NCBI RefSeq assembly: GCF_029892605.1
Contig: NZ_JARXWF010000008.1
Span: 1 to 64,000, forward strand
DNA from: Parabacteroides sp. PM6-13
GTDB lineage: Bacteria; Bacteroidota; Bacteroidia; Bacteroidales; Tannerellaceae
Length of the DNA stretch: 64,000 bases
Reading direction: 5' to 3'
The notes under the pieces are model-generated. The model had not been told where the DNA came from. It saw only the letters and a list, made by a program, of their open reading frames with translations, and did not search any database. Shown piece after piece: positions 11,525 through 60,245 of this stretch. A program made the translations under genes and the position numbers. Each line of letters starts with the position of its first letter. Positions within the stretch are counted from its first letter, which is position 1.

Positions 11525-11545
11525 TGATACATAAAGACAAATGAG

Positions 11546-12364: not shown

Positions 12365-12611
12365 CTTGCGCTGGTTTTATAACTTTCCATCCGAGTTTTT
12401 CAGACAGATCGTCAATTCTTGATTCTAATTCTTCATCCGTCAATCCTTCCAGTTCAAGAGCGGCAGCAATCTTCTTTGCCATACCTATTGGCATCGGTTT
12501 TAATCCGGTAAACGCTTCATACCACTCTGGAAACTCGCTCGTGTCCAAAACTCCAGTTGCCACAGATGACAACAATTTTGCTTTCTGTTCTTTTGATAGT
12601 TTAATCTTCAT
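12354..12611 (-). CDS. hypothetical small protein
   Basis: 85 aa, overlapping starts/stops in a minus-strand operon. Confidence 0.4.
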   Translation of the reverse strand: MKIKLSKEQKAKLLSSVATGVLDTSEFPEWYEAFTGLKPMPIGMAKKIAAALELEGLTDEELESRIDDLSEKLGWKVIKPAQDGK

Positions 12612-12936
12612 GATTCAAATTATTTAATGTTTGTATTCGCTCTGCCAGCCTATCCACAACCTCATCAGGAGCAGATAGTAACAGCTTCTCTAACTCTTTA
12701 TATTCGCAGGCAATCTGCGCATCAACACTCACAGACTGCTGCTTTGGCACAACGTACTGCATCAATTTCTCAAGTACCTGCACCCTGTCTTTAGGATCTA
12801 ACTCTTTCAAATCCTTTTCAAACTGCACTCGGTTACCATCAATAACCTGCTGAATCCAGCTTTTCAATTCCCCTGTTATCTTATTTGGCACTCCTTTAGG
12901 TCTGCCATTGGGGTTATTCGTCTGTCCTTTCTTCAT
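12601..12936 (-). CDS. hypothetical protein
   Basis: 111 aa. Confidence 0.4.
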   Translation of the reverse strand: MKKGQTNNPNGRPKGVPNKITGELKSWIQQVIDGNRVQFEKDLKELDPKDRVQVLEKLMQYVVPKQQSVSVDAQIACEYKELEKLLLSAPDEVVDRLAERIQTLNNLNHED

Positions 12937-13067
12937 CTTTGTAAATCTTTGTTGTTTTCAAAGCTTCCCGTGTACGCAAATAAGCAATTTTATTTTTCAA
13001 ATGATACCACGATCACCTAAGCGGAGAAAGTGGCTGAAATCTCTACCCTTCTCTCAAATATGAGATT

Positions 13068-13346
13068 CTAAACACCATTATCGTAGTACTGTTTTGCTTT
13101 TTCACGGTCTCGGCAACATTTAGCCCACTTTCCAAAGTCTTCGTTCCCAGGATAGCGAACACACTTTTTGTCCGGCTGTTTATATTCGTTGCCAATCTTA
13201 CGCTTAAAAACTTCGTAGTATATCACGCTCGGATCAGCTTCTAACGTACGACTGTATAGATACATCTCTGTTGCCGGGTTATAGCCTTCTTGTCTGAAGG
13301 TATCGCCGAACTTTGTAAATTCTTTGGGTAGTTCTCTAATATTCAT
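13068..13346 (-). CDS. hypothetical protein
   Basis: 92 aa, immediately downstream of the giant ORF. Confidence 0.4.
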   Translation of the reverse strand: MNIRELPKEFTKFGDTFRQEGYNPATEMYLYSRTLEADPSVIYYEVFKRKIGNEYKQPDKKCVRYPGNEDFGKWAKCCRDREKAKQYYDNGV

Positions 13347-13396
13347 CTGTCTTTATATTATGCCCCCGGATGAAGTTAATCACCCGGAGGTTGTTG

Positions 13397-18148: not shown

Positions 18149-18170
18149 GATTCTTCTTATTTATTTGTTA

Positions 18171-18431
18171 TTACTTTTTTATTCCATCCCCGAACAGTTC
18201 TTTGCCCGGGTTCGCCTCTTTCCAGTGATTGATCCCGTCTAACCCCGCATCGCTGGAAAAGTAATCTTCCGTTGACTTGTAGCCCATGAGTTGGAATACA
18301 TCGTCGGTAGAGAACAGCATCTCACCGGTAACTTTATCTTTGGTCGCTCTAATCGTTTTGCCCTTCGCCACTAAAAAGAGATAGTGGCGCAGCTTATCGT
18401 CTTCTTTATACTCTATTAAAATTGGTTTCAT
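18171..18431 (-). CDS. hypothetical small protein
   Basis: 86 aa, directly upstream of the TMP gene. Confidence 0.4.
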   Translation of the reverse strand: MKPILIEYKEDDKLRHYLFLVAKGKTIRATKDKVTGEMLFSTDDVFQLMGYKSTEDYFSSDAGLDGINHWKEANPGKELFGDGIKK

Positions 18432-18450
18432 ATCTTTATCTGTTTGATTG

Positions 18451-18693
18451 TTAGTTTAAACTCCCACTCTCATTTAGCATATCCAAAACCACTTGCTTAT
18501 TGATTTGGCGATCATGTATAGCATCATTTTCGTTTAAAATTGTTTTTGCCAAATCAAATGCATCATTCGTCCGACCTTCGGTTATGGCCTGCATGATCTT
18601 GTAGGCGTTTGATACGTTCCGGCAGATCTCTCCGAATGTCACCTCTAAGGGTATATCCACTAATCTGATTTTTATTTCTTCTTCTGTTTTCAT
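18451..18693 (-). CDS. hypothetical small protein
   Basis: 80 aa with a 4-nt overlap onto the upstream ORF. Confidence 0.4.
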   Translation of the reverse strand: MKTEEEIKIRLVDIPLEVTFGEICRNVSNAYKIMQAITEGRTNDAFDLAKTILNENDAIHDRQINKQVVLDMLNESGSLN

Positions 18694-19193
18694 TTTGTGT
18701 CCTTTTTTATAGTGTGCAAACTGTGCAATTCTTTCAAGAAATCATCATAGCATTTCACCACAGCGTAATGCCCTCCGGCAGCTATGATTTGTTCCTGCAC
18801 TTGCTTCTGAATGTCGCTTTGTTTATCTCGCCCTATCTTGATCTCGAAATTGTAAACTTTGCCATTGTGGGTTACTTGTACATCGGCAATCCCTTTAGTG
18901 CTGCCTGATTTACGCCACATCTTTAGGCGGGCATCATATTGACCTTGTGAGTTCTGCCGTTGGTAAAAAGCTCCGTTAATCTTCGACCATATAGACAGGC
19001 ATTCGGTTAGTCCGTTCGCTGTATCGTCTCTAAATTTCTTTACAAACCGGCAGTTCTCAGGAATGGAACTATTACGATACTTAAACTCGAAATAGTCCTT
19101 CTCCAGTCGCTTAACTGATTCCGGCTTCTGATACCGGGCCACTACTTTACGAGGCTTCTTTTCTTCTCTTGGGATAAAGTCTTGCATATTCAT
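18690..19193 (-). CDS. VRR-NUC domain nuclease (PD-(D/E)xK)
   Basis: GIADVQV...FEIKIGRDKQSDIQKQ fits the VRR-NUC GxPD / ExK / D..S..Q pattern. 167 aa. Confidence 0.5.
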   Translation of the reverse strand: MNMQDFIPREEKKPRKVVARYQKPESVKRLEKDYFEFKYRNSSIPENCRFVKKFRDDTANGLTECLSIWSKINGAFYQRQNSQGQYDARLKMWRKSGSTKGIADVQVTHNGKVYNFEIKIGRDKQSDIQKQVQEQIIAAGGHYAVVKCYDDFLKELHSLHTIKKDTK

Positions 19194-20116
19194 ATAGCTT
19201 GTCGTTTACAGGTGAGTCCATACTGTTTGCAATACCAAAAGAATGTTCTAATGGATTTACGAGCGCAATGCTTCAGGCATCGGTCATATTGCTCATCGCA
19301 CTGCCAGTCCTCATACTTATCAGACTGCCTACTAACAATATGAAAGTAAGCTCTTCCACTCTCGCCAAACTCATTGGCCAGCGATTGACCAATAGCGTAC
19401 CAATCATCATACCGATCTGTCATGTCTATGCCTCGGACTGAAATGTCAGATACCAGCTTGTCTACCCAATACTCTACATCGTTATCCGGATTCACCTCTC
19501 TTGTCTTATATTCCTTCGGCTCGATCATATCGGTAAACACACCAGCCTCTTCATCCATATGAGGAAATTCATCGTATGACGCCCCACGTAGACGGGCAAC
19601 ATCTCTGCATTGTTTATCGACAACCAAACCACGCACTCTCAATACCTCAGCTATTGCCTGAAAATGCTCTTTATGCTTCTCCGGGTTAGCTATCTGTATA
19701 ATCATATACATTCCTTTCCCCGATGCAGATAAAGCGCCATAGCAATAGCCTGGGATATTAGGAAGGTTATGCTTAAGGCGATCCCAGTTCTTTATACTTG
19801 GGTTATCCTGTGCGTCCAGGTCGATGCAGATAAAGCCGGAATGTTTGATTAGGCCTTTATTACTTCGTTTAGAAAATACGCCTGAAACAGTAATGCAGGG
19901 TAGGGATGCCTTTATGCGCCTACGTTCATCTTTATCGGTGCAGCCTCTTACCACTTCAACCTGTCTTCTGTATTCTCCAGACAATAGCCAATCGAATAAG
20001 CTGACGGTCTTTGTAGGAGTGGCATCAAAATAATTTCTAAAAAAAGAGATAGGAACGGTCTCGAACTTTGTCAAAAGGTCGAGCCTCCATATTCTATCTA
20101 AATTGATTATGCTCAT
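19190..20116 (-). CDS. replication/primase-like protein (BT4734-like N-terminal domain + PriCT-like C-terminal domain)
   Basis: LPCITVSGVFSKRSNKGLIKHSGFICIDLD resembles the VirE/BT4734 N-domain. The C-terminus DDWYAIGQSLANEFGESGRAYFHIVS resembles a primase C-terminal domain. Start set at an internal Met; the ORF track starts at 20191. Confidence 0.6.
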   Translation of the reverse strand: MSIINLDRIWRLDLLTKFETVPISFFRNYFDATPTKTVSLFDWLLSGEYRRQVEVVRGCTDKDERRRIKASLPCITVSGVFSKRSNKGLIKHSGFICIDLDAQDNPSIKNWDRLKHNLPNIPGYCYGALSASGKGMYMIIQIANPEKHKEHFQAIAEVLRVRGLVVDKQCRDVARLRGASYDEFPHMDEEAGVFTDMIEPKEYKTREVNPDNDVEYWVDKLVSDISVRGIDMTDRYDDWYAIGQSLANEFGESGRAYFHIVSRQSDKYEDWQCDEQYDRCLKHCARKSIRTFFWYCKQYGLTCKRQAI

Positions 20117-20151
20117 GATAATGCTTATGATAATGATAATGTATATGTATA
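20114..20151. repeat. iteron-like ATGATAATG tandem repeats at the 5' end of the primase-like gene
   Basis: catgataatgcttatgataatgataatgtatatgtata, followed by the ttgaatac x2 direct repeat (20161..20180). Confidence 0.35.
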
Positions 20152-20205
20152 GGGTAGCCGTTGTATTCATTTGAATACTGTTGAATACCAATGTATACCG
20201 TAGTA

Positions 20206-20484
20206 TTATTTATTGCTGTTCCTCCCATCCCAATACTCTTGTATTTTCTTCCTATTGTCCTCTCGTTTCTCTTCATACTTCTTGTTGTCTTCATCTATAA
20301 ACGCTTGGAGCAAGTGAAAAACCACCGAAAGTTTCTCCGTGAAATCAGAAGGGAGTTCACTGCGCCATTGGTAGGCCATAATAGCCATAAATATCTTGCC
20401 ACGTTCGGAATCTGTTAGTATGGAGAGAATTGTCTCAAATTGCTCACGAACGAGTAAGGGTGGTTGTTTAGGTTTATTTGCCAT
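20206..20484 (-). CDS. hypothetical protein
   Basis: 92-aa ORF. Confidence 0.4.
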   Translation of the reverse strand: MANKPKQPPLLVREQFETILSILTDSERGKIFMAIMAYQWRSELPSDFTEKLSVVFHLLQAFIDEDNKKYEEKREDNRKKIQEYWDGRNSNK

Positions 20485-20485
20485 C

Positions 20486-20767
20486 TTATCGCCCTCCTTT
20501 AACCTTAAAGTACCACACTTTATTTTCTTTACTTATTGGGCAAATTCCCTGATGCGTCCGCTCGATCAGTCCGTCATCTTCCAACTGCCGGATAAGTCTT
20601 GTACAGTTAGGCCGGGTTATGCCTGTCGCCTCTGCTGCGTGGTAAGTAGTAGAATGATTGTCAATAAAGAAGGCAAATAAGGCTTGCTTTTGCAAACGGA
20701 TTCGTTTATCTTTGTGGTGATCTTCTTGCCCTTGCTGCCCGGCGGGGCTTTCTTTTTTTAGTTTCAT
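20486..20767 (-). CDS. HTH DNA-binding protein (winged-helix/MarR-like)
   Basis: FFIDNHSTTYHAAEATGITRPNCTRLIRQLEDDGLIER is an HTH. 93 aa. Confidence 0.5.
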   Translation of the reverse strand: MKLKKESPAGQQGQEDHHKDKRIRLQKQALFAFFIDNHSTTYHAAEATGITRPNCTRLIRQLEDDGLIERTHQGICPISKENKVWYFKVKGGR

Positions 20768-21066
20768 GCCCTGCGCCCTCCTTCTTTACGTCCAGCTAAC
20801 TCAAGTGCTAGCTCGGCATCAACTACAATCTTGCGCCCTATCTGCTTAATTGCTTTGTCTATTTTCCCGCTTGCCTTGATCCGGCTTGCGGTAGGAATAG
20901 AACAGTTAAATAGTCGGGCAATTCCAGATACACCATAGACATATTGTTTCTCTTGTGCTGTTTGAGCATTCACGTTCTGTCTAAAGTTTCCATGCTCCTG
21001 CAAGAAAAGAAACTCTTCACCAGTCATTTGCCAAATTGGTTTGGCTCTTAATTCTACAATATTCAT
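20764..21066 (-). CDS. excisionase-like HTH protein (MerR/HTH_17-like)
   Basis: VYGVSGIARLFNCSIPTASRIKASGKIDKAI is a phage excisionase-type HTH. 100 aa, overlapping the upstream ORF. Confidence 0.5.
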   Translation of the reverse strand: MNIVELRAKPIWQMTGEEFLFLQEHGNFRQNVNAQTAQEKQYVYGVSGIARLFNCSIPTASRIKASGKIDKAIKQIGRKIVVDAELALELAGRKEGGRRA

Positions 21067-21274
21067 AATCTACTTTTTTATTATCGTTAATTACTTGGTG
21101 CGTCCACCTGTTAGTAATCGATTACGATAGCAAATGTATAATTCCGAGTATCAGTAGAAAAGGAAGAATTGTGGGAATAAATATAAAAACAAAAAAGGCT
21201 AACTATCAATGTGTTAACCTTGCGTTTTTTGTGATTTGGGAAAGATTGTTTGGCGGTTTGGGAATATTTATGAA

Positions 21275-22237
21275 TTATTTTGATTCCTCGTAGTATTTGG
21301 TGATTGTGTTTTTAAAGGTTTTTGGGAAGCTATCTTCTAATAGTTTAATCTTTTTCACATTATTACTGTCTTTATTTACTTGTGGAAACACCCCTGAATC
21401 TATTAGTGGCATTACCGTTTTTGCGATAATATCCGCCGTTACACCTTTCTTTATTTTTAGTTTATCAAGAGTATATCCATGTTCTAAAAATTGCTTTATG
21501 GTTTCTTTGTTGTCATCACAAATAAATTGTAACTCAGTAATATGCTTTGATATATCCCTTGGCTCTTTCTTTGACTTAGGTAGAACCCTGTATTTGTCAT
21601 ATGATCCGAAGTTTTCTTCATAGTCACTATTTTCTTTTAAGATGTCTACTATGTCGATATCGAAATGAGCATAAATTGATGAAATGTCATAAAGAATTTG
21701 TTCTATGTCATTTGTTAAAAAAGTAACGTGATATCCGTTTTTTTCTAATGTTTCCAAACTGAGATAGGAGCAATATAATAGAGCATCTAACTGCTTTGCA
21801 AATAATTTAGCATATAAGATGCGATTGTGATGAGATTCTATTTTTAGCAGTTTCTCTGTTAGGTTTTTCTCCAATGCTAACCCTACTTTATAATTGAGAC
21901 CCTCGACAATTTTCCCCTCTATGTAGTAGAATCTTGATTTAGCATCCTCTATTTTCTTACGGAATGCGCTGGGCTTTTTTTTGCTTACGTCTGGCATTCG
22001 ATGTTTGGCTTCGTCCGAGTCAAGATATTTAAGATGTTCGTCCATGTTGAGAAGCTTCCACAATACGTCTGGATTTTTCATAAAAAAAACATAGTGCTGT
22101 ATTTGCTTATCCAGTAGCTTTACAATCGTGCGATAAAGGAAGCCATAAAATCCCTTTTGGTTTTTATAACGATCATAATGAAAGGCGTCATCGATTAGAA
22201 CATTTATTTCATCAAATACATATTCTAAATATTTCAT
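21275..22237 (-). CDS. AT-rich hypothetical protein (element cargo gene next to integrase)
   Basis: 320 aa, Lys/Ile/Tyr-rich with no recognisable motif. Clearly lower GC than its neighbours. Overlaps the integrase stop by 4 nt. Confidence 0.5.
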   Translation of the reverse strand: MKYLEYVFDEINVLIDDAFHYDRYKNQKGFYGFLYRTIVKLLDKQIQHYVFFMKNPDVLWKLLNMDEHLKYLDSDEAKHRMPDVSKKKPSAFRKKIEDAKSRFYYIEGKIVEGLNYKVGLALEKNLTEKLLKIESHHNRILYAKLFAKQLDALLYCSYLSLETLEKNGYHVTFLTNDIEQILYDISSIYAHFDIDIVDILKENSDYEENFGSYDKYRVLPKSKKEPRDISKHITELQFICDDNKETIKQFLEHGYTLDKLKIKKGVTADIIAKTVMPLIDSGVFPQVNKDSNNVKKIKLLEDSFPKTFKNTITKYYEESK

Positions 22238-23565
22238 ATTCCATCAAATTTACTCATTGCACTTGCTTTTATCTCATCCGCTATGTCTATGTACGGCTTC
22301 ATTGCTTTGTAGTCGCTATGCCCTGTCCACTTCATTACAACTTGTGCCGGGATACCTAATGACAACGCATTACAGATAAATGTTCGTCGTCCGCAATGCG
22401 TACCGATTAAAGCGTACTTGGGTGTAACCTCATCTATACGTTCATTTCCTTTATAGTATGTTTCCCGGATTGGTTCGTTTAGTTCTGCCAGCTCACAAAG
22501 CTCTTTTAGGAACTCATTCATCTTTTGGTTACTGATAACCGGCAGCACTTTACTATTAGGTAAATGCACGTCTTTGTACTTCTCCAGTATTGCCCGGCTA
22601 TGACTATTCAGCTCAATGATGAGGCTATCGGCTGTTTTTACGGTTGTTATTTCGATATGGTCCTCTTTCACATCACTACGTTTGAGGTTGTACACATCGG
22701 AATACCGTAGGCCGGTGAAGCATTGGAACAGGAATACATCCCGGACACGTTCAAGGTATTGTTTACCTTCCGGTATCTTATATTCTCTAAGCTGGGTAAG
22801 TTCTTTCCATGTGAGGAAGATTATCTTCTTTTTAGTCGTTTTCAATTTCGGCTTGAACGCCTCGAAAGAAGTGTTTTCGCAATGTCCTTTAGAAACTGCC
22901 CAGCGAAGGAACCATTTTAATAGATTGATCTGTTTTTCTATGGTGCTATTCCTCATCCCCACACTATAAAGGTAAGACACATATTCTCGAAGTACATTTT
23001 CATTCAACCTATCAAAGGTTAATCCAGGATCAAAATCTTTTATGTGTCCTTTTACTACATTGAGTTTTTTTATAGTTCCTAATGCCCAGTTGTTCTGCTC
23101 CCCACATTCAGCCATAAAGAGGTCAAAGTACAGATGAATGTTTTTTTGTTCTTGTCTATCATCGCCATTTTTCTTCCCAAAAGCATCTTTTAATTGATCC
23201 GGTGTCGGCGTCGTATCCTGTACCTCAAACTCCTTAAAGACAGCCTCTATTTTAGAATATAGATCCGATAGATCCGAGTTGATTTCGGACGCACTTTGTT
23301 TAAGTTTATTTGTACATCCTTTTTTTACTCGCTGTTTATCCAAATCCCATTTTGGCGCATCAATTCGGTAGCCGGTGGTAAACTCTATTCGGTTGCCACA
23401 ATAGACTACACGCATACGGATAGGCACATTCTCTGTAATAGGAATACCGTTTTTCTTTCGGCTTTCAAGTGAAAAGACTATATTTCGCTTTATATTCATG
23501 GGTGCAAAAGTGGGTGTAAAATTAAATCCACACCCAAAAGTACACCCATTTTTTGAGATATGCAA
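22234..23565 (-). CDS. int: site-specific tyrosine integrase
   Basis: 443 aa. N-terminal SAM-like and core-binding region plus a C-terminal catalytic domain (HCGRRTF, RYSDVYNLK) typical of Bacteroides phage/CTn integrases. Adjacent to attR. Confidence 0.9.
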   Translation of the reverse strand: MHISKNGCTFGCGFNFTPTFAPMNIKRNIVFSLESRKKNGIPITENVPIRMRVVYCGNRIEFTTGYRIDAPKWDLDKQRVKKGCTNKLKQSASEINSDLSDLYSKIEAVFKEFEVQDTTPTPDQLKDAFGKKNGDDRQEQKNIHLYFDLFMAECGEQNNWALGTIKKLNVVKGHIKDFDPGLTFDRLNENVLREYVSYLYSVGMRNSTIEKQINLLKWFLRWAVSKGHCENTSFEAFKPKLKTTKKKIIFLTWKELTQLREYKIPEGKQYLERVRDVFLFQCFTGLRYSDVYNLKRSDVKEDHIEITTVKTADSLIIELNSHSRAILEKYKDVHLPNSKVLPVISNQKMNEFLKELCELAELNEPIRETYYKGNERIDEVTPKYALIGTHCGRRTFICNALSLGIPAQVVMKWTGHSDYKAMKPYIDIADEIKASAMSKFDGI

Positions 23566-23668
23566 CGATATTCTAATATATTTTATTTATCTTTGCGCTT
23601 CATAAAAGGCTGGTTAATAGCGTGATTTTAAGATGATATGATATTTTGCAATATAAAAGGTTAAAGAG

Positions 23669-23685
23669 CGATATGCTCCACAAAT
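23669..23685. repeat. attR core (cgatatgctccacaaat)
   Basis: Perfect 17-bp direct repeat of 9391..9407. Confidence 0.8.
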
Positions 23686-23715
23686 CATCAAAAAAGGAGG
23701 CTTTCTTTCGAAAGT

Positions 23716-23766
23716 CTCCTTTTTTGATTACCTCTTCCTGCGGATAAACAGCACTGTCAGGGCGAC
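23716..23766. repeat. 51-bp direct repeat copy 1 (ctccttttttgattacctcttcctgcggataaacagcactgtcagggcgac)
   Basis: 50/51 identical to 24274..24324. Begins with the descending arm of a terminator-like hairpin (aaaaaaggaggctttctttcgaaagtctcctttttt). Confidence 0.8.
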
Positions 23767-23919
23767 AAATAAGGCTCACTCCCAAAAGCAAAACCCCACA
23801 ATAGCATTTGTAAAAACAAAAAACATATTGTATATTTGTACTTAATATGACCTCCCACGCTTCCCGTCAGAACAGCGCACCCGGGGAGGTCTTCGAGTTT
23901 CTATATCATTCCTACTACT

Positions 23920-24270
23920 ATGAAATACATTAAGCAACCTCTCTCCATTCAGCAGCAAATAGACAAACTAAAATCCAGAGGATTGATCATTGATAATGAA
24001 GAAATTGCAGCTGGCTATCTATCGAATATTAGCTATTATCGCTTAAGAGCTTACACCTATCCATTCCAAAACAATACAGATGAAGAAAAAGATCACCACT
24101 TCACTCGAAGCGATATACATTTCAGAGACATCCTTGACATAATCAGCCCTCAGAGTGATTTCAAGAAAAATCTTATTAGCATTATTCAAGACGGTGGGAA
24201 TTTATTAAAAATCAAAGATATGGGATTCCCTGAAAACTGGGCACATCTTGATGTGTGGAAAGAAATATAA
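23920..24270 (+). pseudogene. Abi_2 (AbiD/AbiF-like) abortive-infection protein, N-terminal fragment only
   Basis: IQQQIDKLKSRGLIIDNEEIAAGYLSNISYYRLRAYTYPF matches the Abi_2 family N-terminus. The ORF stops at 116 aa against about 300 aa for the family. Confidence 0.5.
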
Positions 24271-24273
24271 AGC

Positions 24274-24324
24274 CTCCTTTTTTAATTACCTCTTCCTGCG
24301 GATAAACAGCACTGTCAGGGCGAC
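24274..24324. repeat. 51-bp direct repeat copy 2
   Basis: See 23716..23766. Starts 3 nt after the Abi fragment stop codon. Confidence 0.8.
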
Positions 24325-27510: not shown

Positions 27511-29333
27511 GCAAGTGGCCGCAGGCCTATCTTTTGCCGGCAGTTTCAGAGACTGTGTAAAAAACCATATTCACCATGCCTGCCTGTAGTGCTTGCGTAG
27601 TGTACACGCATAAAAAGATGAGAGCGTGAGCCACCGGTTCATTCTTAACAATAACCTTGTGTCTCATTTTTGAGGGAGAGCCTGCTTGGACAAATGATTT
27701 TCCAAAGTATATTTTGCTCTTTTCCGACAAAAAAGGCTCCCCAGAGTATGTTTTTTGCCTTTTGGGCATAATTTGCTATTCTTTCCAATAATTTGGACAT
27801 GTCTTCTATATTCATCAAGCGCTTGAGGTTATAGCAAGATGCGTACAAGTCTATTTCAGCCTGTACTTTTCTTTTGCCTGTCAATAGGAGTGGGACTTTG
27901 CCCATCCACCGTTTCATGGTTCCAAAAATATGTTCGATATGATCCTTCCTTTCTTTGATAAGAGCCTGGTATTTTTCTGTCTCCATGCGCTTCGCATATT
28001 CCTCCCGGAAGGGATCCTGTATCTTGACTTTCAGTCGCCTACCATTTCTAAATGTGGTACATCTTCCAAATAAAGCACAATGCCTGCAATCGGAGGCTTT
28101 AGCTTGATAAATAAGATATTCAGCACTCTCTTGCTTGACATTCTTTGGCTTGCGTTTCAATAATTTTCCTTTGCTGCAAGTGTAGCTATCTGTGGACTGG
28201 TCATATCTAAATTCAACGCCTGCTTTCTTGTCATGACTACTTGAGGTCCCTTCTTTCAATGGTATAGCGCAAGATGTTATCCCGTTTGATTCGATGGATT
28301 TGATTTGATCAATATTATCATATCCTTTATCGGCTTCTACTATTTCGGGAACAAGGCCCAGTTGCTCTTTGGTCTTGTTTACATTATTTTCAATACAGTC
28401 TAGGTCAATCACATCGGGAGTCAACTCGGCTAAAACAATCATTTTATGTTTAGCATCTGTTCCGCCTTGAAGGTTGTAAGCGGGAATAAATCCGTCCCGG
28501 CTTTTCATCAAGTGGGCATCCGGATCTGTAGGACAATAACTGCTATGATCACTCTGTTTGATTTGACTCTTAATTTCTTCCAGCTCTTTTATCTTTTGCC
28601 GCAGACTGACGATTTCTTCCAACAAAGATTTATTGATATCCGCGCTCAGTTCACAGCTATCGAGTGCTTCGGTCAGTTCGTCTGTGTGATCATTGTTGTT
28701 TAACTCAGAAAGCCAAGTATGTAATTGGTCTTCCATTTTCTTTATGCGACTAGACAATGCCTTCTCTGTTAAAACCTTTTCTTTAGAAACACATGCCTTT
28801 ATTTTACTCCCGTCATAAATAATCTTTTCTCCACTGATAAAACCTTCGTCGCGCAAAAAGCGGCGAAAACTCAGCGTTACGTAACGAATTGCTTCTGTAT
28901 TATCTTTACGATAGTCCGCAATTGTTTTATGGTCAGGGTGAAGATCATGCAACAACCATTTTACTTCGATATTGCGATAGGTTTCAGATTCCAATCGACG
29001 ACTACTGCTTATCCGATTTAAATAACCATACAGATACAGTTTCAGTAAATCACAAGGATGGTATGACTTACGACCTTTTTCTTTGGTGCCTCTATATTGA
29101 AACTTTTCCGGGGATTGCCCATAAAGCATCTCAACCAAAGCATCTATCAGGCGAACGTAATTCTGTTCACCGATACTCTCGTCAAGGGTATTGAAAAGAG
29201 AGGCTTGATGGCGAGAAACGCCAGTTTTGTAATGCATAGCTGTTGTTTGTTTGTCTGAATAAATGTAAGAAATTTTATCCAATTTAGCTAATTTGCCACA
29301 ATGCATTTTTACACAGTCTCTTCAACTGCCGGA
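27511..29333. mobile_element. IS1182-family insertion sequence
   Basis: Single 553-aa DDE transposase flanked by imperfect inverted termini (27511..27555 and 29311..29333, cacagtctct..aactgccgg). Confidence 0.65.
27645..29306 (-). CDS. IS1182-family transposase (DUF772 N-domain + DDE)
   Basis: SYHPCDLLKLYLYGYLNRISSSRRLE is the IS5/IS1182 N-terminal domain. DDE region downstream. Possible alternative start at Met24. Confidence 0.8.
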   Translation of the reverse strand: MHCGKLAKLDKISYIYSDKQTTAMHYKTGVSRHQASLFNTLDESIGEQNYVRLIDALVEMLYGQSPEKFQYRGTKEKGRKSYHPCDLLKLYLYGYLNRISSSRRLESETYRNIEVKWLLHDLHPDHKTIADYRKDNTEAIRYVTLSFRRFLRDEGFISGEKIIYDGSKIKACVSKEKVLTEKALSSRIKKMEDQLHTWLSELNNNDHTDELTEALDSCELSADINKSLLEEIVSLRQKIKELEEIKSQIKQSDHSSYCPTDPDAHLMKSRDGFIPAYNLQGGTDAKHKMIVLAELTPDVIDLDCIENNVNKTKEQLGLVPEIVEADKGYDNIDQIKSIESNGITSCAIPLKEGTSSSHDKKAGVEFRYDQSTDSYTCSKGKLLKRKPKNVKQESAEYLIYQAKASDCRHCALFGRCTTFRNGRRLKVKIQDPFREEYAKRMETEKYQALIKERKDHIEHIFGTMKRWMGKVPLLLTGKRKVQAEIDLYASCYNLKRLMNIEDMSKLLERIANYAQKAKNILWGAFFVGKEQNILWKIICPSRLSLKNETQGYC

Positions 29334-43317: not shown

Positions 43318-43325
43318 ATACAAAT

Positions 43326-43379
43326 GAAAAATGAGGAATGAAGAATATCAACCAATTCTTCATTCCTCATTCTTCATTT
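43326..43379. terminator. REP-like hairpin (17-bp perfect stem aatgaggaatgaagaat), bidirectional terminator
   Basis: Sits between convergent GH51 and binding-protein genes. Same motif family as 6297..6370. Confidence 0.55.
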
Positions 43380-44431: not shown

Positions 44432-44476
44432 GTTGAAGAAGTTGAAAGTTGAAAGTTGAAAATTGAAAATTGAAAC
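44432..44476. repeat. tandem heptamer (gttgaaa)n microsatellite
   Basis: ggttgaagaagttgaaagttgaaagttgaaaattgaaaattgaaac. Confidence 0.7.
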
Positions 44477-44575
44477 AACGTTCGCTTAGCGCAGCGTAAA
44501 GCAAAATGAAGGAAAAGGAGAAAGGGGAAGTGTTTTCAAATTTTGGAAAATTGGAAGGAACGGAGATATAAATGG

Positions 44576-44892
44576 CTGAAAGCCACAATGGGCCTGAAGG
44601 GCCGAGTTCCGGAGGGACGAAGACTTAGCCCATGGGTAAGCAGACTGAAAGTCTGCGTCACCCTGGGTTTAGAGGGTATATAAATAATGAGTTCTGAAGG
44701 AACGAAAGAAGAAATCCACTATTCACAGGCGCTATCACCATATATCCTATGATACTATCTATCGTTCCTTCAGAACTCGATTTCTTGTATTGTCATGATA
44801 CCCAGGGTAGCGCAGACCTCCGGTCTGCTTACCCATGGGCTAAGTCATCGTCCCTCCGGGACTCGGCCTTCCAGGCCCGCTGTGACTTTCAG
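44576..44892. repeat. 317-bp nested imperfect palindrome (outer arms about 70 bp, inner perfect 17-bp IR gagttctgaaggaacga)
   Basis: Outer arms 44576..44645 and 44823..44892 are near-perfect reverse complements. Inner IRs at 44651..44668/44800..44817 and 44690..44706/44762..44778. Confidence 0.8.
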
Positions 44893-45013
44893 CCATATAA
44901 AGAGAATCTTCCCCTTTTCTCCAATTTGAATTCAGTACCTATTGCGAATAAATAAAAAAAGCGTTTCCCATAGTTGTTGGGAAACGCTTTATATAGATAA
45001 GAAAATTGTCTAC

Positions 45014-53725: not shown

Positions 53726-56700
53726 TTATTTCATATCTTTCACACAGCGAACGGTTATCGCTGAAGTAAAATTATTCACTTCAAAACCGGGATAAGGAAG
53801 CTGCATTTGCGGGGTTTTGATCGCTGCGTTAAAGAAATATCCGTAACGCATATTATATGTCTTGTCGCCAGCCCCCTCTTTCTCTATTTTCAACGCTAAG
53901 GGCTCGCCTCCGAATGTGCCGTTTTTCTTTGTCCAGTCCCAAAGGGAAGAGTAGGTAGCAGCAAACAAGATACTGCTGTTTAAGCCCGGGTACTTCCCAA
54001 TGGTGGTGAGGAGTATTAATTCGCGTTGGTTGGGAGGACGCCATCCCCGCTCCATCTCTGTGTCTCCGGTGTTATAGTCGCTACACGGATTATATCCGTC
54101 TCTGACAGCATTGGCCAATGCAATCCAGGTCGCATAAGAGGTAGGCTTTATCAGTTTTCGCACGGCAATTTTGGTGTACAACCGGTTCTCCGGGTCATAT
54201 TCATTATGGGCCGGCAATGTACGGTTGGTAAAGATGCCATCCGGGCGATGCGAGGAGGATGTCAGGGCGCTGGCATCGATCACGATATAGCCATTACCAT
54301 CTTCCATCGTGCCTATTTCCACTTTCGTAGGACTACCGCTTCCCGCCGAGATATTCCGCGCGCAACGCACATGCTTTCTTCGTCCGCTTTCTCCATTGTC
54401 ACCCCATCCCCTGACGGCGCTTCCTTCATCCGCCTGGAAAGAGTGTCCGCCGCTGGCATAATAGGCAAATGTCTCTCGTTGCTGGATCGGATATCTGCCG
54501 CGCTGGGCGTAGTTCCATTCGCGTATCTCCTGCGGATAGAGAGTGACCCGTTCGGGTATGGCATTGGTGCCTACCCAGAAATGCTGGTATTGGTTGATCG
54601 AAGGCAGATACCATTCTATCTCATTTTCGTCGATCATACCGTTACCGTTTTTATCGCGGTTACGGCTCATGCAGGCGGCAAAGGCAGATGCCTTATGTTG
54701 ATCCCATGTGCCATCCGCTCGTTTATCGCCCATGATCTCGCGCTTAAACCATACCTTCTCCGTATTCAATTTGAGTGTCTCTTGAATCTCCTTTCTCATA
54801 AGCTCTCTTCCGTCGTAATCCGCCGTCAAAACGGGATTGGATCCGGTTCTACCGTACGGGATGGCGCAATCGATCGCTTTGTGGTCGAAATCCTCCTGCC
54901 CTGCATTCCGGGTGTAATAGCTTGCCGGTACATTCTCATTGATACATTCCAGTCCCCAGAAGAGACCCTCTTTCACCTGCTTCTTTTGCACATCGAAGAT
55001 GGTAACGATAGGCAATTGGTCGAGTACATATTTAGCCGAGATGACCGAGCTGTTGTAATCGGAGTTATCCTCTTTCCGGTAGGCCGCCTTCAGCCCTATT
55101 TTCATGCTGCGTGTGCGGCTCGACAACATATCCGAGCGGTAACAGAGATACTGCTCCATCGCCACATTGTCGCTCGCTTTATACGTATGTTCGTTTACAT
55201 AAGCGTAGAAAGTGACTCTCTCAGGTGCTTGTTGGTTGTTGGCATACCAGTTCATCAGGTCACGCACCGTGTATAAACAACCGTTCGGATTGTTGGCAAC
55301 ATAGTCGTTGGGATCTGAGAAGTTAGGGCCGTAAGGAGCGACTCTTCCGTTTTCTCTCTCGTCGATCACTTTCTTATCGGCAAACAATACCCAATCGATA
55401 TCCGCTTTCTCATCATTTTGTTTCGTCGGATCATTGGTGATAAAGGTCTCTCTCCACCCTGTTTTGGCCGTTTTCACCGAACAAAAATAGAAACCATCCT
55501 CGTTGATCAGGTCGCTTTTAGTGAATTCCAGCGGAATGCGTGAGTAGTGAGCGTCTAATTCGATGGTGATACCATCTTTGAAGACTACATCGCCATCGGA
55601 GCTGGGGGAGGGATCCTCGCCAATGGCCTCGATAATGATGCTATTGACCGATTTCACCGTTACATTATAGGTGTATTTATGGTTGCGTCGCACGCTAAAG
55701 TCGAATGCCGGATTATCGCCATAGACAAAGCCTAAGGGGATATAATAGGTCACGTCGGCCTTCGCTGTTTGCGTCGGGTTGCCGGGCAACAACGGGTTGT
55801 TCTCTTTTCCTTCATATTCTCCCTTGAGCACTATCATGGCGGTTTGCCCCGGCGCGTGGGTCTTACGCAGGTCGTTCAAAGAACCCGTTCCGGTGAAAGG
55901 ATTATCCAACTGACCGTTCTCCAGCATATAAAACTGGAAGGTGCCATTCTGTATCTTGCCATCAAACTGATCGGGATCGGGCGTAAAGGTGTCTGTGGTA
56001 AAATAGTTCCCCTCTTTATTCTTCCCGGTCATATCGCGCACATAGTCATTGTAGAAGAGTACCGTCCGGGGCAAATTGCGTATCTCCCAGGAGATCGGGT
56101 GGAAGATCACCTCCCGTTGGCTATCCTTATAGCTTTTGATGTTGAAGGTAACGGAAGAGATCGTACGATCCAGCCATATCTTACAATCCGGGGTCAGGGC
56201 ACTGCCATCGCTCTGCTTAATGATGCCTTTGCCTTGCTCATTCATATCAAACAGACATAATCCGGACGCATCAACCCGTCCGTCTGCCCCCGGCTTACCA
56301 AAACGGCCGCTCAACAGAAACTCAAGCGAAGTCCATCCAGTATAGTTATCCGCCATGGTCGCGCTTTCGCCCAGCCATTCTTCCAATCGTCTGTTGGGCG
56401 AAGCAAAAAAAGCGTCGATCTGTGCTTTCAGATCACCCGGTGATTGATTGAAGTTATTGGAGCCTACGTTGGCTACCGCGAAAAGACGTTTCATGCCTGT
56501 GGTGGTCTCCAATGTCAGCTTATTGGATGTCAGATCAGACTCCGTAAAATATTTTTTCTGCTTGTATTTCCCGTATCTGTCAAACACAATCACATAGAGG
56601 TCATACACCTCTGTCTCCTGATCGCTCTTGGTCTGTACCTTCGGACTATTCACCCCATAGGGTAAGTCTAACGAAATGGCGATCCCCTCTTTTACTTCTG

Positions 56701-56803
56701 CTGCCTGATGGTCGTATTGCGTTTCCTCGGCGCATGACTGGAACAGGCTCATCCCCGCCAACAACAGGCATAGTATAGATATCGTTGAATATATTGTTCT
56801 CAT
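53726..56803 (-). CDS. large surface lipoprotein, putative fimbrial tip/adhesin-like (Mfa-like operon)
   Basis: Lipobox LFQSCAEE. 1025 aa. Co-oriented and adjacent (19-bp gap) to an upstream fimbrillin-like lipoprotein gene. Confidence 0.4.
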   Translation of the reverse strand: MRTIYSTISILCLLLAGMSLFQSCAEETQYDHQAAEVKEGIAISLDLPYGVNSPKVQTKSDQETEVYDLYVIVFDRYGKYKQKKYFTESDLTSNKLTLETTTGMKRLFAVANVGSNNFNQSPGDLKAQIDAFFASPNRRLEEWLGESATMADNYTGWTSLEFLLSGRFGKPGADGRVDASGLCLFDMNEQGKGIIKQSDGSALTPDCKIWLDRTISSVTFNIKSYKDSQREVIFHPISWEIRNLPRTVLFYNDYVRDMTGKNKEGNYFTTDTFTPDPDQFDGKIQNGTFQFYMLENGQLDNPFTGTGSLNDLRKTHAPGQTAMIVLKGEYEGKENNPLLPGNPTQTAKADVTYYIPLGFVYGDNPAFDFSVRRNHKYTYNVTVKSVNSIIIEAIGEDPSPSSDGDVVFKDGITIELDAHYSRIPLEFTKSDLINEDGFYFCSVKTAKTGWRETFITNDPTKQNDEKADIDWVLFADKKVIDERENGRVAPYGPNFSDPNDYVANNPNGCLYTVRDLMNWYANNQQAPERVTFYAYVNEHTYKASDNVAMEQYLCYRSDMLSSRTRSMKIGLKAAYRKEDNSDYNSSVISAKYVLDQLPIVTIFDVQKKQVKEGLFWGLECINENVPASYYTRNAGQEDFDHKAIDCAIPYGRTGSNPVLTADYDGRELMRKEIQETLKLNTEKVWFKREIMGDKRADGTWDQHKASAFAACMSRNRDKNGNGMIDENEIEWYLPSINQYQHFWVGTNAIPERVTLYPQEIREWNYAQRGRYPIQQRETFAYYASGGHSFQADEGSAVRGWGDNGESGRRKHVRCARNISAGSGSPTKVEIGTMEDGNGYIVIDASALTSSSHRPDGIFTNRTLPAHNEYDPENRLYTKIAVRKLIKPTSYATWIALANAVRDGYNPCSDYNTGDTEMERGWRPPNQRELILLTTIGKYPGLNSSILFAATYSSLWDWTKKNGTFGGEPLALKIEKEGAGDKTYNMRYGYFFNAAIKTPQMQLPYPGFEVNNFTSAITVRCVKDMK

Positions 56804-56822
56804 CTTATACGTTATTTTTTAT

Positions 56823-58382
56823 TTATTCAAAAACCGGCAGGTCAACGTTTTTCCCTACCCAATTGCTTACTTTATACTCCAGGTCAACAAGGATCTCTTC
56901 CTCCTCTTCCGGTATCTCTGGTGCTTTATTGATCTTGGCGGTTATATCATATAGATTTCCGTGGAGCAGACCATAGGTGTTGTTGTTTCCCCCTTTGATC
57001 GGGTCGATATATACCCTGTATTTTTTAGGATATTCCAGTTTGTATTGATCCGTATTGAACGTTACGTAAGGGGCGACATCCGTATCCCGGACAAACTCGT
57101 CCAGATTGGCTATCACAAAGTTTTTCCCTTTGATAAGATCCTTCTGAGGAACGCCCTGCTCGTCGACCCATAAGCCATAGACGCCTTTTTCGTTTTTATA
57201 ACGCACTCTTTTCTCTTGGATGCCACGGGTGAGTATGCCCTCTACCTCCACCTTGATAGCCCCCTCCTCGGGTGTATTGTAATAGTAGTCTTTTTCGTAT
57301 GTATAGAATGTGATTGTCGTATCCGCTGTTATAGTGGGGGTTGTGTAGTTTCTCTGCCAGGGCGGAAGCAAGAAATCACTCTGATACATATTGACTGCCA
57401 TCACATAGTTTACATCCAGAGGAGGAAGCACTAACCAAGTTTTTGTTTGTATATTTTCAATTGTTATCTTTTCAATCGCCAATGCGTAGGTATAAGCCTG
57501 TTCGATCCGTTCAAAATAGCCTCTATTTAAGTGTACTTTTTTGACCGCTTCCTCTTTATAGTTTTTCCGGTTATTACCCTCTCCATACCAGAGGTCGTGT
57601 TTCATCTCAGCCGGTTCGATATCGCAAGGCCAGCCATAGATATCATTTCCGAATAGGGTTCCTATCTTATAATCCATCGAAGTGGACATGCCGGAAGAGA
57701 CATAAAGTAAAGAGGTCACCATATCACGGGTTAATAGATAATCAACGGAGTGGTCAATTTGCTCCGGCTCGATCGTGATCTTCAGGTTGAAATCCACCCG
57801 GGCAGCTAACTGGGTAAGCGGAATCATCACCACATTATCACCGGATTCGATGCGGTACTCTACATCTCCTGTCTTCACCAGGTTTTTAGGATCAAACGTA
57901 GCGGTGAAGAGGGTCGTTTCCGTCACATCCGGATTTGTTAGCCCTCCATAGGTATCGAAGGAGGCAAGATCTGTGCGCGCCGAGTTGGCAATCACCACAA
58001 TATAGACGTCACCCGGTTTCAATTCAATCCCCGGTATCTTATAGGTGGGTGTCGCCGGGTTGCCGGAATCGTCTGTTCGTTGCTCTGCTATCAGCCGATC
58101 AGCCGGATCGACAGCCCCTTTAGACACCTCTTTATAAAGCAATCGTTTCTTCGACTGCTTATCAAATATCGCCACAAAGCATTTGTTGATTTCTAATTCA
58201 TTCGAATTGGCATACTCATAATTCCCCTCTCCATTTATCGCGCGACTTTGTATTTCCGCTGACTTCAATAATAAGTCAATTTTGGCATTACCGGATTGGT
58301 TGATAGGCCCCTCTTCGTGATAGCATGACACAACACTTAATAACGTCAAAATGATGACGCCGAAACATACTTTTCCTTTCAT
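56823..58382 (-). CDS. fimbrillin-like lipoprotein (putative major/minor fimbrial subunit)
   Basis: Lipobox LLSVVSCYHEE. 519 aa. Size and organisation consistent with Bacteroidales FimA/Mfa1-type proteins. Confidence 0.4.
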   Translation of the reverse strand: MKGKVCFGVIILTLLSVVSCYHEEGPINQSGNAKIDLLLKSAEIQSRAINGEGNYEYANSNELEINKCFVAIFDKQSKKRLLYKEVSKGAVDPADRLIAEQRTDDSGNPATPTYKIPGIELKPGDVYIVVIANSARTDLASFDTYGGLTNPDVTETTLFTATFDPKNLVKTGDVEYRIESGDNVVMIPLTQLAARVDFNLKITIEPEQIDHSVDYLLTRDMVTSLLYVSSGMSTSMDYKIGTLFGNDIYGWPCDIEPAEMKHDLWYGEGNNRKNYKEEAVKKVHLNRGYFERIEQAYTYALAIEKITIENIQTKTWLVLPPLDVNYVMAVNMYQSDFLLPPWQRNYTTPTITADTTITFYTYEKDYYYNTPEEGAIKVEVEGILTRGIQEKRVRYKNEKGVYGLWVDEQGVPQKDLIKGKNFVIANLDEFVRDTDVAPYVTFNTDQYKLEYPKKYRVYIDPIKGGNNNTYGLLHGNLYDITAKINKAPEIPEEEEEILVDLEYKVSNWVGKNVDLPVFE

Positions 58383-58723
58383 AAATTACATTCTCTTCCT
58401 TTTTCTTTCTATAGATAGTCCTTCCCTATTGTATAGAACAATAGGGAGTTATGGCCATAAACGGATTTCTATAATTTAGTTTTTTAATTTAAGCGAGCCA
58501 AAATTATGGAAATAATATGGAGTAAAAAAACGAGTTTTGGAGGCTGAATTTTGCCTAAATTTATCGCACTTTGAAATTCATATTCTGCGTAAAAAACACC
58601 CCAAAAGAGAATTAAACATATTTAACAATTACAGGTAAAGTGGGCAGCTATCAAGCCATGCTATTGGGGGTGGTGTTCGAGTTTTGGAAGATGTGAAGAT
58701 GGGCAAGGTGCACTGAAATGAGT

Positions 58724-58930
58724 TAAATCCCGCAGGGATTTCCTATTCGTAACCCTCGGTAAGAGAGCGAAGCGAACGACCGGGGGTATTCCGCTAATAA
58801 TAACTAATGAACCCGGAATGGGTTCAACCCGCTTCGGGGTTGCTTGGAGAGTAGGTCTTGTCTATCTGCCTACCACGGGTTTGCTTCGCTACACCCGCGG
58901 TTACGAATAGGAAATCCCTGCGGGATTTAT
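58724..58930. repeat. imperfect palindrome (about 50-bp arms, taaatcccgcagggatttcctattcgtaacc...)
   Basis: Arms 58724..58777 and 58879..58930 are near-perfect reverse complements. Confidence 0.8.
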
Positions 58931-58945
58931 ATGAAAATCTTCCAA

Positions 58946-59213
58946 TTTTGGAAGATTCCCAAGGAGCGCTGCAAGCGCGATTCAACCCAGCCCATGGGTG
59001 ACCGAAGGGAACCCTGGGTGGTTTAGGTTAAAGTAAATGGAACTCTGAAAGAGTGACTATTAGGTATTTGTGTATATAGTCGTTCTTTGGCTAAGGCCGA
59101 TCTTCGATTCAGAACTCCATTATTATTATACTCTGATACCCAGGGTTCCCTTCGGTCACCCATGGGCTGGGTTGAACCGCGCTTACAGCGCTCTGTGGAA
59201 ACCTTCAATTTTT
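58946..59213. repeat. imperfect palindrome (about 72-bp arms sharing agcccatgggt...accctgggt motif with the 44.6-kb element)
   Basis: Arms 58949..59026 and 59138..59210. Produces mirror-image ghost ORFs (ERCKR.STQPMGDRREPWV on both strands). Confidence 0.8.
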
Positions 59214-59597
59214 CTCCCACTTGAAGATCCGCATCCATCAGAATAATCATATTAAATTAAATCAAACCAATCACATCCGGAAAATCCCAAAATCAGCGTA
59301 TTGCTCCCTTCGGAAGCGAACGGTGTTTCAAGGTTCAGACATTTTATCATTTTGTCAAAATCGCCCGACTTTTTTTCCGAAAACGTAGGGGTTTTTAAAA
59401 TTAGTCCTGCGAGTAACACTTTTTAACGTATCATATTGTAAAGCAAAATGGCGATTTTGCTTACACTTTGTATTTTGACATTTTCCTTCGGAGGGGGTTT
59501 CATCCCCTACCCCTTATGCCTAATTATTCACTCTTCATTCATCATTCTTCATCGGAATGGCTATCTTTGCACACAGAAGACAGCAAACGCATTCTGC

Positions 59598-60245
59598 ATG
59601 ATTGAACTAATTGGTAAAGGGTTATTGATAGGGATTCTTGTCTCCGCGCCTATGGGACCCATAGGTATGCTGGTTATTCGGCGCACGCTGAATAAAGGGC
59701 GATGGCATGGATTCGTCACCGGACTGGGCGCGGCTCTGTCGGATATCCTTTATGCTGCCGTGACAAGCATGGCGATGGGGATGGTGGTGAGCTTCGTAGA
59801 GAGCAACCACGACTACCTGCAGGTGATCGGGAGCTTGGTCTTGGCCGGCTTTGGGTATTACATCTACCAAAGCAACCCCGTAAAGGGTCTCCGCAAGCAG
59901 CAAGAGAGTAAGCTATCTTTTACGCAGGACTTCATCTCCGCCTTCCTGTTGACCTTCAGCAATGTCCTGATCGTACTTTTGTATATCGGTCTTTTTGCCC
60001 GCTTCGGCTTCGTACGGGCAGACTATTCCGCAGCCCAAGCGCTGGTAGGCGTGGCGGCTATTGGCTTGGGCGCGATACTCTGGTGGTTCGTGGTGACCTA
60101 TATCGTTGCTAAATTAAGACGCTGGTTCAATATACGCGGCATCTGGCTGATGAACCGGATTGTCGGCTCCATCATCATCGTGCTCTCTATCTTCGGGCTG
60201 TTGTCGGTGTTCCTATCGGCCTATGTGGATCTGCCAACCTTATAA
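59598..60245 (+). CDS. LysE/RhtB family amino-acid exporter
   Basis: MIELIGKGLLIGILVSAPMGPIGMLVIRRTL N-terminal motif. About 6 TM helices. Start at internal Met of ORF 59448..60245. Confidence 0.65.
   Translation: MIELIGKGLLIGILVSAPMGPIGMLVIRRTLNKGRWHGFVTGLGAALSDILYAAVTSMAMGMVVSFVESNHDYLQVIGSLVLAGFGYYIYQSNPVKGLRKQQESKLSFTQDFISAFLLTFSNVLIVLLYIGLFARFGFVRADYSAAQALVGVAAIGLGAILWWFVVTYIVAKLRRWFNIRGIWLMNRIVGSIIIVLSIFGLLSVFLSAYVDLPTL

Follow-up and report, generated by a model that had tools for sequence, protein, structure and literature searches.

Paired palindromes beside a Parabacteroides lipoprotein operon are built from a modular hairpin unit and are probably REP-like repeats

Introduction

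In Parabacteroides sp. PM6-13, two long palindromes lie side by side in the 1215-nt spacer between divergent genes for a lipoprotein (left) and a LysE-family exporter (right), and their position raises the question of whether they control these genes, encode something themselves, or are repeats of another kind. We analysed a 64,000-nt stretch of contig NZ_JARXWF010000008.1 (hereafter the window) that contains both of them, here called A and B, together with a third palindrome, C, at an unrelated intergenic site. [quoted passage not shown] Our analysis favours a different one. A, B and C are probably non-coding repeats of the type of repetitive extragenic palindromic sequences (REPs), bacterial interspersed mosaic elements (BIMEs) and REP doublets forming hairpins (REPINs), each being a head-to-head pair of units, with a spread by Y1-type transposition that we infer and with no dedicated regulatory role.

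Three palindromes are head-to-head pairs of one modular unit

Palindrome A has perfect 31-nt arms (58724-58754 and 58899-58929) separated by 144 nt, with more imperfect pairing inside, and B has 99-nt arms (58951-59049 and 59108-59206) that are 81% complementary and include a 39-nt perfect core. Palindrome C, at 44.6 kb, has 100-nt arms (44569-44668 and 44800-44899) that are 87% complementary. Compared with dinucleotide shuffles, the two strands of A fold with dG values of -111 and -105 kcal/mol (z -10.5 and -10.3), those of B with -161 and -167 (z -17 and -20), and C with z -22 to -24; the three palindromes are far beyond chance. The arm sequences of A and B occur only as these pairs, with 0 matches in 100 shuffles. 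The sequence-only reading was right about both elements (z -10 to -20) and about their placement 340-830 bp upstream of a 519-aa gene, which we measure as 342-831 nt from the gene start at 58382. Mirror-image 'ghost' open reading frames (ORFs) with ERCKR[D/G]STQPMGDRREPWV, which it had also pointed out, are present on both strands, and the ghost ORFs have no family matches.

Each palindrome arm is one modular unit of ~100-130 nt, a string of small local hairpins. The 5′ half of the unit runs from a 13-nt hairpin (hpA; 5 bp, 3-nt loop) through a ~10-nt linker to AGCCCATGGGT and a variable mini-hairpin; the 3′ half continues with ACCCTGGGT, an A/T-rich linker of ~22 nt and hpC, a second hairpin that resembles hpA. 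AGCCCATGGGT and ACCCTGGGT pair into a stem with one bulged U, and the mini-hairpin is closed by G.A/A.G or U.U. In the core of the unit, a (Y)AG foot is followed by the GC-rich stem CCCA(U)GGGU/ACCCUGGG, a purine-rich internal loop and the variable mini-hairpin; the feet in the window are TTAG (C), CCAG (B) and GTAA (A). The arms of A keep this layout with other stem sequences and a GCGAAGC mini-hairpin (Table 1).

We built a covariance model, R1, from 13 units, with A and B left out and the arms of C included. An unfiltered run on the entire window recovers the two arms each of C, B and A, and the next match has E = 0.33; all six units of the window therefore stand in three inverted doublets. 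A and B together form a four-unit cluster with orientation +,-,+,-, as in BIMEs. On ~7.5 kb of additional flank of the same contig R1 finds no further units, giving three doublets in the ~72 kb of genome covered. Alignment and covariance model agree that B and C are one family (~60% identity), as the sequence-only reading had proposed, and A is a member as well. At their outer ends A, B and C are unlike each other. The motif ATTTTGGAAGAT, allowing up to 1 mismatch, has just three occurrences in the window, each on the + strand just left of a doublet, and may be an outer part of the element.

In B and C the differences between arms lie mainly in loops and linkers and the local stems are intact; the core-to-hpC linker of C is only about one-third identical between arms. 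The left and right stems of A (P1) differ at three positions per side, six in all, and each pairs locally nonetheless. The local hairpins, not the long rod, are therefore what is preserved. We also tested whether B and C have a left/right asymmetry in common, as would prove the doublet to be the replicating unit; they do not.

In the 33 distinct units compared, standard pairs fill 99.5% of the pair cells, and 8 of the 13 pairs (all five of hpA and three of the core) change on both sides. Not one of 500 shuffles attains these figures, and pairing with slid partners is at most 57%. These counts come from a model-fitted alignment, used in place of a MAFFT alignment that mis-registered hpA in some rows. 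Compensatory P1 variants include CCCCGGC/GCCGGGG, CCGTGGGT/ACCCACGG and GGCT/AGCC, with independent core examples from loci L064, L067 and L079. The covariation keeps the local hairpins.

The palindromes lie outside the conserved control region of the operon

A sister species, Parabacteroides sp. OttesenSCG-928-O15, has the same divergent LysE / 516-aa / 1025-aa / GH2 gene order at ~81-86% nucleotide identity, with a spacer of 406 nt. Conserved there are window positions 58386-58561, which hold the promoter motif of the 519-aa gene, and 59554-59597, which hold the LysE promoter; everything between (58562-59553, 992 nt, both palindromes) is replaced by 187 unrelated bases. The sister spacer contains no palindromes and no R1 match. 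A and B are thus not part of the conserved control region of the operon. On the other side of LysE, the sister species carries a compact 89-nt relative (L123 4752-4840) that reads AAGTCC-GCAA-GGACTT, linker, ACCCCGTGC...GCACGGGGT, inverse, and looks like a doublet collapsed onto one central hairpin, a 'double-foot' form. With the spacer free of palindromes and a relative elsewhere, the elements are dispensable, lineage-specific and shifting in position. Two other sets of sequences were considered for an empty-site comparison and set aside: LysE-based relatives (81-88% identity) have a different upstream neighbourhood and are uninformative, and homologues of the 172-aa gene beside C are too distant (at most 59%).

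These comparisons bear directly on the proposed phase-variation switch, in which a site-specific recombinase would flip the segment between the arms and thereby switch the lipoprotein/fimbrial-like operon. Bacteroidales commonly use invertible-promoter switches, and the inverted repeats here do flank segments of 118-144 nt upstream of a surface-lipoprotein operon. Short-read contigs also break exactly at the palindrome edges (58717 and 44882), as a flipping segment might cause; such breaks are expected here in any case because any inverted repeat of at least k bases produces them. A promoter to be inverted is missing: the window has 71 copies of TAnnTTTG, the -7 promoter motif of Bacteroidetes, against 45.5 expected, and none of them is in 58724-59213 on either strand; the flanking genes have fixed motifs outside the palindromes. 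A sigma-70-type promoter match in the centre of B was rejected, its count equalling the shuffle expectation and its consensus not applying to Bacteroidetes. The only tyrosine recombinase of the window (22234-23499) is the integrase of an integrated element 35 kb away, so a recombinase close to the repeats, which such switches often but not always have, did not turn up within the window. Over both palindromes, a second, independent assembly (GCA_029893125.1) agrees base for base and its spacer is not flipped, so that one orientation is seen in two assemblies. Furthermore, the sister-species operon keeps its promoter block without palindromes, the arms are 3-5 times the typical inverton repeat length and are built of local hairpins, and family members lie at an unrelated locus here and beside housekeeping genes in five other phyla. 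We regard an inverton as barely credible, the switch proposal finding no support in the promoter motifs, the recombinases of the window or the sister operon.

The fimbrial identity of the operon fares somewhat better. The 519-aa protein carries a lipoprotein signal, MKGKVCFGVIILTLLSVVSC, and has no Pfam or NCBIfam match; the next gene encodes a 1025-aa protein with sub-threshold FimA/DUF4906 matches only. The lipoprotein part of the earlier assignment holds, and the fimbrial part is plausible but weak, depending on that next gene. For this genome a false lead is removed: phase variation of the lipoprotein/fimbrial-like operon is not supported.

Comparison of the window (SRR35246373) with GCA_029893125.1 (SRR35247124) also revealed 19 single-nucleotide polymorphisms (SNPs), all within 54608-57072 in the 1025-aa and 519-aa genes, and none in the other ~5 kb compared; the stretch looks like a recombined or diversifying allele. 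The GCA_029893125.1 contig (L121 11024-11958) ends ~1 kb past the window's left edge in an IS256-type (Transposase_mut) gene.

A different kind of role would be structural, with host-adopted DNA that, whatever its origin, forms cruciforms or binds nucleoid proteins or gyrase and so insulates the divergent promoters or ends read-through. According to the twin-domain model, negative supercoiling builds up between divergent promoters, which is where A and B lie, and C sits just downstream of an intrinsic terminator. E. coli BIMEs are reported to bind IHF, gyrase and Pol I (PMC2817692). The sister species, however, keeps the gene pair without the palindromes, and adoption of this kind is in our judgement highly improbable as an explanation of A, B and C. 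It is compatible with a REP/REPIN-like nature and does not exclude it.

Relatives of the unit occur in other phyla

A core-pattern scan of one genome per species matched more than 104 loci, a lower bound (~34 chance matches expected), with Bryobacterales dominating those listed; one 7.1-Mb Bryobacterales contig from a metagenome-assembled genome (MAG) held at least dozens of them. Matches in coding regions (L028, L047, L051, L062, L068, L088 and L093) were set aside, and there were no further Bacteroidales copies among the matches listed. An identical 20-nt core is common to at least six phyla, those beyond Bacteroidota including Acidobacteriota, Verrucomicrobiota, Hydrogenedentota and Nitrospirota. 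The same module order is found in units from Verrucomicrobiia, Limisphaerales, Chthoniobacteraceae, Terracidiphilus, Bryobacterales, Hydrogenedentota and Nitrospirales. The unit belongs to a superfamily found in at least six phyla, a reach that was unexpected.

The units occur in four arrangements: solo (after genes), in tandem, as inverted doublets (L064 and L067, like the window) and inside MITEs bounded by terminal inverted repeats (TIRs). Locus L065 holds three units in an 80-nt tandem array, and in Bryobacterales very many copies lie inside an element of ~290 nt with ~20-nt TIRs, CCAATACTGTTCACTTAG, and CTAG-like flanks. A literal GTAG foot is present in Bryobacterales and some Terracidiphilus units. 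The neighbours of the units in other phyla are unrelated and mostly housekeeping genes, with no recurring family and no transposase; the expectation that family members would accompany surface-structure loci is not borne out. A metagenome scan with an extended, overly specific pattern gave 3 loci. A scan of viral contigs gave one doubtful locus, and we therefore see no phage link.

Three further features of these relatives deserve mention. Identical units are common to Nitrospirales and Hydrogenedentota MAGs (L065 4048-4262; L067/L113/L114), the 80-nt array of L065 being perfect, which suggests recent transfer or mis-binning of one organism. In the Bryobacterales MITE (L004-L105; MAG contigs CBDDCL010000015 and CBDDCT0100000xx) the first hairpin is TTGA-GCCGCGAAGCGGC, which resembles the CnGA-GCCGCGACC..GGGAGCGG hairpins tied to Solibacter class 3 Y1 transposases by Quentin et al. 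(PMC6006769). In Limisphaerales (L010) an (ACTTCAA)n run, similar to the heptamer repeats of the window described below, lies ~290 nt from the unit.

A published RNA motif belongs to the same superfamily

At gathering thresholds, Rfam finds only a tRNA in the window and ten related loci. Below threshold, both arms of B match Acido-Lenti-1 (RF01687) weakly (23.6 and 23.1 bits, where the gathering score is 37; one match at 59159-59192 on the + strand). A match to MIR831 was discarded, as it reflects merely a long hairpin. Acido-Lenti-1 is multi-copy, often closely spaced in the genome and 'sometimes near group II introns', and has no known function (Weinberg et al. 2010, PMC2864571); annotated copies exist in Tannerella (2026 preprint). 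When its seeds are reverse-complemented, they align with our units module for module, in the order 13-nt hairpin, 9-10-nt linker (GACATAACAC-like), AGC, GC-rich hairpin. Read in the Rfam direction, the units show the two hairpins joined by a ~9-nt linker, with GCU after the first, that define the motif, and a Lentisphaera seed and a Nitrospirales unit have the same octamer linker, CATAACAC. On the other strand, the units are thus members of a wider Acido-Lenti-1 superfamily, and Acido-Lenti-1 itself is a subset of the unit superfamily modelled on the opposite strand. Despite this agreement, the Rfam model covers only two of the three hairpins, and the motif was described from Acidobacteria and Lentisphaerae only and not as inverted doublets or REP-like.

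Could the units then be structured non-coding RNAs, that is, small RNAs (sRNAs) of the Acido-Lenti-1 type transcribed from the units, with action in cis or trans? In Rfam, Acido-Lenti-1 is classed as a probable sRNA, with covariation; the covariation in our units is strong, and their GNRA/UGAA/GAA-type loops and tandem G.A internal loops are typical of RNA. However, covariation of hairpins is equally expected for single-stranded DNA, and a strand test (G.U vs A.C) in the Bryobacterales copies met too little variation to discriminate. The units of the window lie upstream of both flanking promoters with no promoter motif in or beside them, and their matches fall below the Rfam gathering score. 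A transcript of an inverted doublet would be a ~100-bp double-stranded RNA hairpin that buries the local hairpins, and the sister species dispenses with the elements. Taken together, these points make an RNA function quite improbable.

How the units may have spread

We return to the reading of A, B and C as REP/BIME/REPIN-type repeats. The units would spread, or would once have spread, as folded single-stranded DNA, cut and joined by an HUH/Y1 transposase encoded elsewhere in the genome and similar to the REP-associated tyrosine transposases (RAYTs), as for REPs and REPINs. We propose this Y1/HUH-mediated spread because of the analogy with the REP/REPIN-RAYT systems and the resemblance of the units to subclass 2.6 REPs; the mobilising enzyme is accordingly a predicted one. 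At the present locus, the effect of A and B would be limited to the passive action of ~490 bp of cruciform-prone DNA between two divergent promoters.

Several observations weigh against this reading. The three doublets in ~72 kb are mutually diverged (~60% identity for B vs C), so spread is not recent. A motif regex for Y1/HUH genes found none in the window and about 1 Mb of related loci. No clean empty site or target-site duplication was found, the sister spacer presenting a replacement of 992 nt by 187 nt and not a precise insertion. The Parabacteroides foot is YAG, in contrast to the REP foot GT[AG]G, and with three hairpins (the extra ones being hpA and hpC) and 100-130 nt, against 20-40 nt for REPs, the unit exceeds any described REP. 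The alignment on which covariation was counted had been fitted to the model, and since most units were fetched with the core pattern, P1 is in part invariant by construction. Finally, in Bryobacterales a MITE with TIRs carries the unit, and this suggests a DDE transposase in that group.

This last point leads to the other answer of the sequence-only reading, namely that A and B are classical MITEs: deletion derivatives of a DDE-type insertion sequence (IS) whose long arms are TIRs recognised in double-stranded form. The palindromes are small and non-coding with inverted termini, they are present in one species and absent in another, and they share the left-flank motif; C is flanked by a possible ATAA direct repeat and A by TA (with no empty site to compare), and the Bryobacterales element is itself a MITE. 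On the other hand, the sole IS of the window (27537-29332; complete, 1.8 kb, DDE_Tnp_1_6/DUF772) has 32-nt TIRs (88%, CCGGCAGTTTCAGAGACTGTG) unrelated to the palindromes, and the outer ends of A, B and C are dissimilar. Conservation resides in internal hairpins with covariation and not in the termini, and solo units and direct tandems, which have no inverted ends, exist as well. We consider classical MITEs unlikely. The 'MITE pair' answer comes close, A and B being dispersed, non-coding inverted repeats; as multi-hairpin head-to-head doublets, with no cognate IS found in the window, they are more like REPINs or BIMEs than classical TIR-type MITEs.

A broader proposal, possible but decidedly more tentative than the REP-like nature of A, B and C, is that Acido-Lenti-1, the Bryobacterales repeats and the Parabacteroides palindromes make up one ancient cross-phylum superfamily of REP-like single-stranded DNA, served by the poorly known RAYT subclass 2.6 / class 3 Y1 enzymes, whose true substrate would be the three-hairpin unit, its conserved core lying between two similar hairpins of direct orientation. 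If so, this would be the first REPIN-type system in Bacteroidales, and a 'candidate sRNA' would be reassigned to mobile DNA. A true link to Y1 transposases would also provide a tractable system for the persistence of REP-like sequences and their movement between very distant lineages. As it stands, an unexplained Rfam motif is linked to REP-type repeats, and annotators should mask A, B and C, given the assembly breaks at two of their edges and the ghost ORFs.

Features of the window

Coordinates of the doublets, units and promoter motifs are collected in Table 1.

Table 1. Repeat units, associated motifs and flanking promoter motifs of the window
Feature	Position	Strand	Description
Doublet A	58724..58929		two diverged head-to-head units; inverted repeat, folds; both arms match R1; local hairpins in each arm
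Unit A-left	58727..58787	+	hpA AAATCCC-GCA-GGGATTT; linker CCTATTCGTA; stem ACCCTCGGT/ACCGGGGGT around GCGAAGC; R1 25.8 bits, E 8e-5
Unit A-right	58872..58926	-	hpA and linker as in A-left; stem ACCGCGGGT/ACCCGTGGT; GCGAAGC; R1 20.1 bits, E 0.002
Doublet B	58951..59206		two head-to-head units around an A/T-rich centre of ~118 nt; inverted repeat, folds
Unit B-left	58966..59019	+	hpA GCGCT-GCA-AGCGC; linker GATTCAACCC; AGCCCATGGGT, GA-CC-GAA-GG-GA, ACCCTGGGT; R1 39.6 bits, E 2.5e-8; outside training set
hpC of B-left	59041..59059	+	GGAACTC-TGAAA-GAGTGAC; B-right counterpart (59108-59124) degenerate
Unit B-right	59138..59191	-	R1 39.3 bits, E 3e-8
Doublet C	44569..44899		same family as A and B, at unrelated intergenic site; inverted repeat, folds, aligns with B
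Unit C-left	44606..44668	+	R1 57.5 bits; in training set
Two hpC hairpins of C	44689..44778		GAGTTC-TGAAG-GAACGA and complement, around 48-nt centre
Unit C-right	44800..44862	-	R1 64.8 bits; in training set
Left-flank motif	58945..58956 (B side); 58681-58692 (left of A); 44540-44551 (left of C)	+	ATTTTGGAAGAT, at most 1 mismatch
Promoter motif of 519-aa gene	58499..58506	-	TAATTTTG; 117 nt upstream of gene; outside palindromes; conserved in sister species
Promoter motif of LysE	59562..59569	+	TATCTTTG; 29 nt upstream of LysE start; outside palindromes; in 95%-conserved block 59554-59597

One neighbour of C is a terminator-ended gene for a 172-aa outer-membrane-barrel-like protein, and the other is a periplasmic-binding/LacI-like gene. 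The LysE and 172-aa proteins show 100% identity to those of Parabacteroides sp. PFB2-12, placing the window in that strain or one nearly identical to it. For LysE (59448-60245), the public annotation gives 265 aa from an upstream ATG; a start at 59598 is indicated by homologues (215-219 aa), by the Pfam match and by the conservation of the promoter block. The region ~10400-24300 is a probable integrated mobile element or prophage remnant: its tyrosine integrase has an Arm-binding domain, and it also holds a primase-like gene (19190-20170) and tape-measure, Gp49/HicB and DUF3853 genes, with a tRNA-Ala nearby (9329-9403). Intergenic heptamer repeats of the GAAGAAT and GTTGAAA types, some of them hairpin-forming, occur at 6293-6370, 43322-43379, 44432-44475 and 59520-59555. 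Two of these are close to doublets, and the contig of a 97%-identical genome ends at the 59.5-kb repeat.

Comparison with known systems

Compared with invertons, the palindromes are alike in having inverted repeats upstream of a surface-protein operon, and differ in having no internal promoter motif and no nearby recombinase, in their much longer, internally structured arms, and in their absence from the orthologous operon. With MITEs such as Correia/NEMIS, ERIC and BrickBuilt they share small size, lack of coding capacity, inverted-repeat form, the breaking of short-read assemblies and the creation of ghost ORFs; they differ in that the window contains no related IS ends and that conservation resides in internal local hairpins. 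The BrickBuilt MITEs, from Porphyromonas gingivalis, contain a minisatellite; judged by their description, and not by direct comparison, their sequences are unrelated to ours.

The remaining comparison is with REPs. In Bacteroidetes and Planctomycetes, the REPs that flank RAYT subclass 2.6 genes consist of a foot, a stem, a purine internal loop and a mini-hairpin (PMC6006769 Table S1); examples are GGTAG-CCCGGGCAG..CTGCCCGGG, GTGG-CACGCTCT-GA-GG-TCCT-CC-GA-AGGGCGTG and GTGC-CATGCTTGC-ATC-GCGAAGC-AGG-GCAAGCATG, and the feet of the subclass are GCTAG/GGTAG/GCTGG (PMC6006769). Class 3 Y1 genes in Solibacter (Bryobacterales) have been linked to ~600 hairpin copies (Quentin et al. 2018, PMC6006769). 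Our units resemble the 'atypical' REPs of subclass 2.6 and class 3 (Acidobacteria) in their imperfect GC-rich hairpin, short 5′ foot ending in AG, bulge, purine internal loop and mini-hairpin top, and like REPs they are short imperfect palindromes whose hairpin is kept by compensatory change. They differ in that the core sequence is common to several phyla, which is unusual for REPs, and the doublets, at 200-330 nt, are longer than the ~70-110 nt of Pseudomonas REPINs. With REPs, BIMEs and REPINs as a group they have in common their inverted pairs, their clusters of alternating orientation and their extragenic, dispersed positions, and, like these, they are long-lived and have diverged within the lineage.

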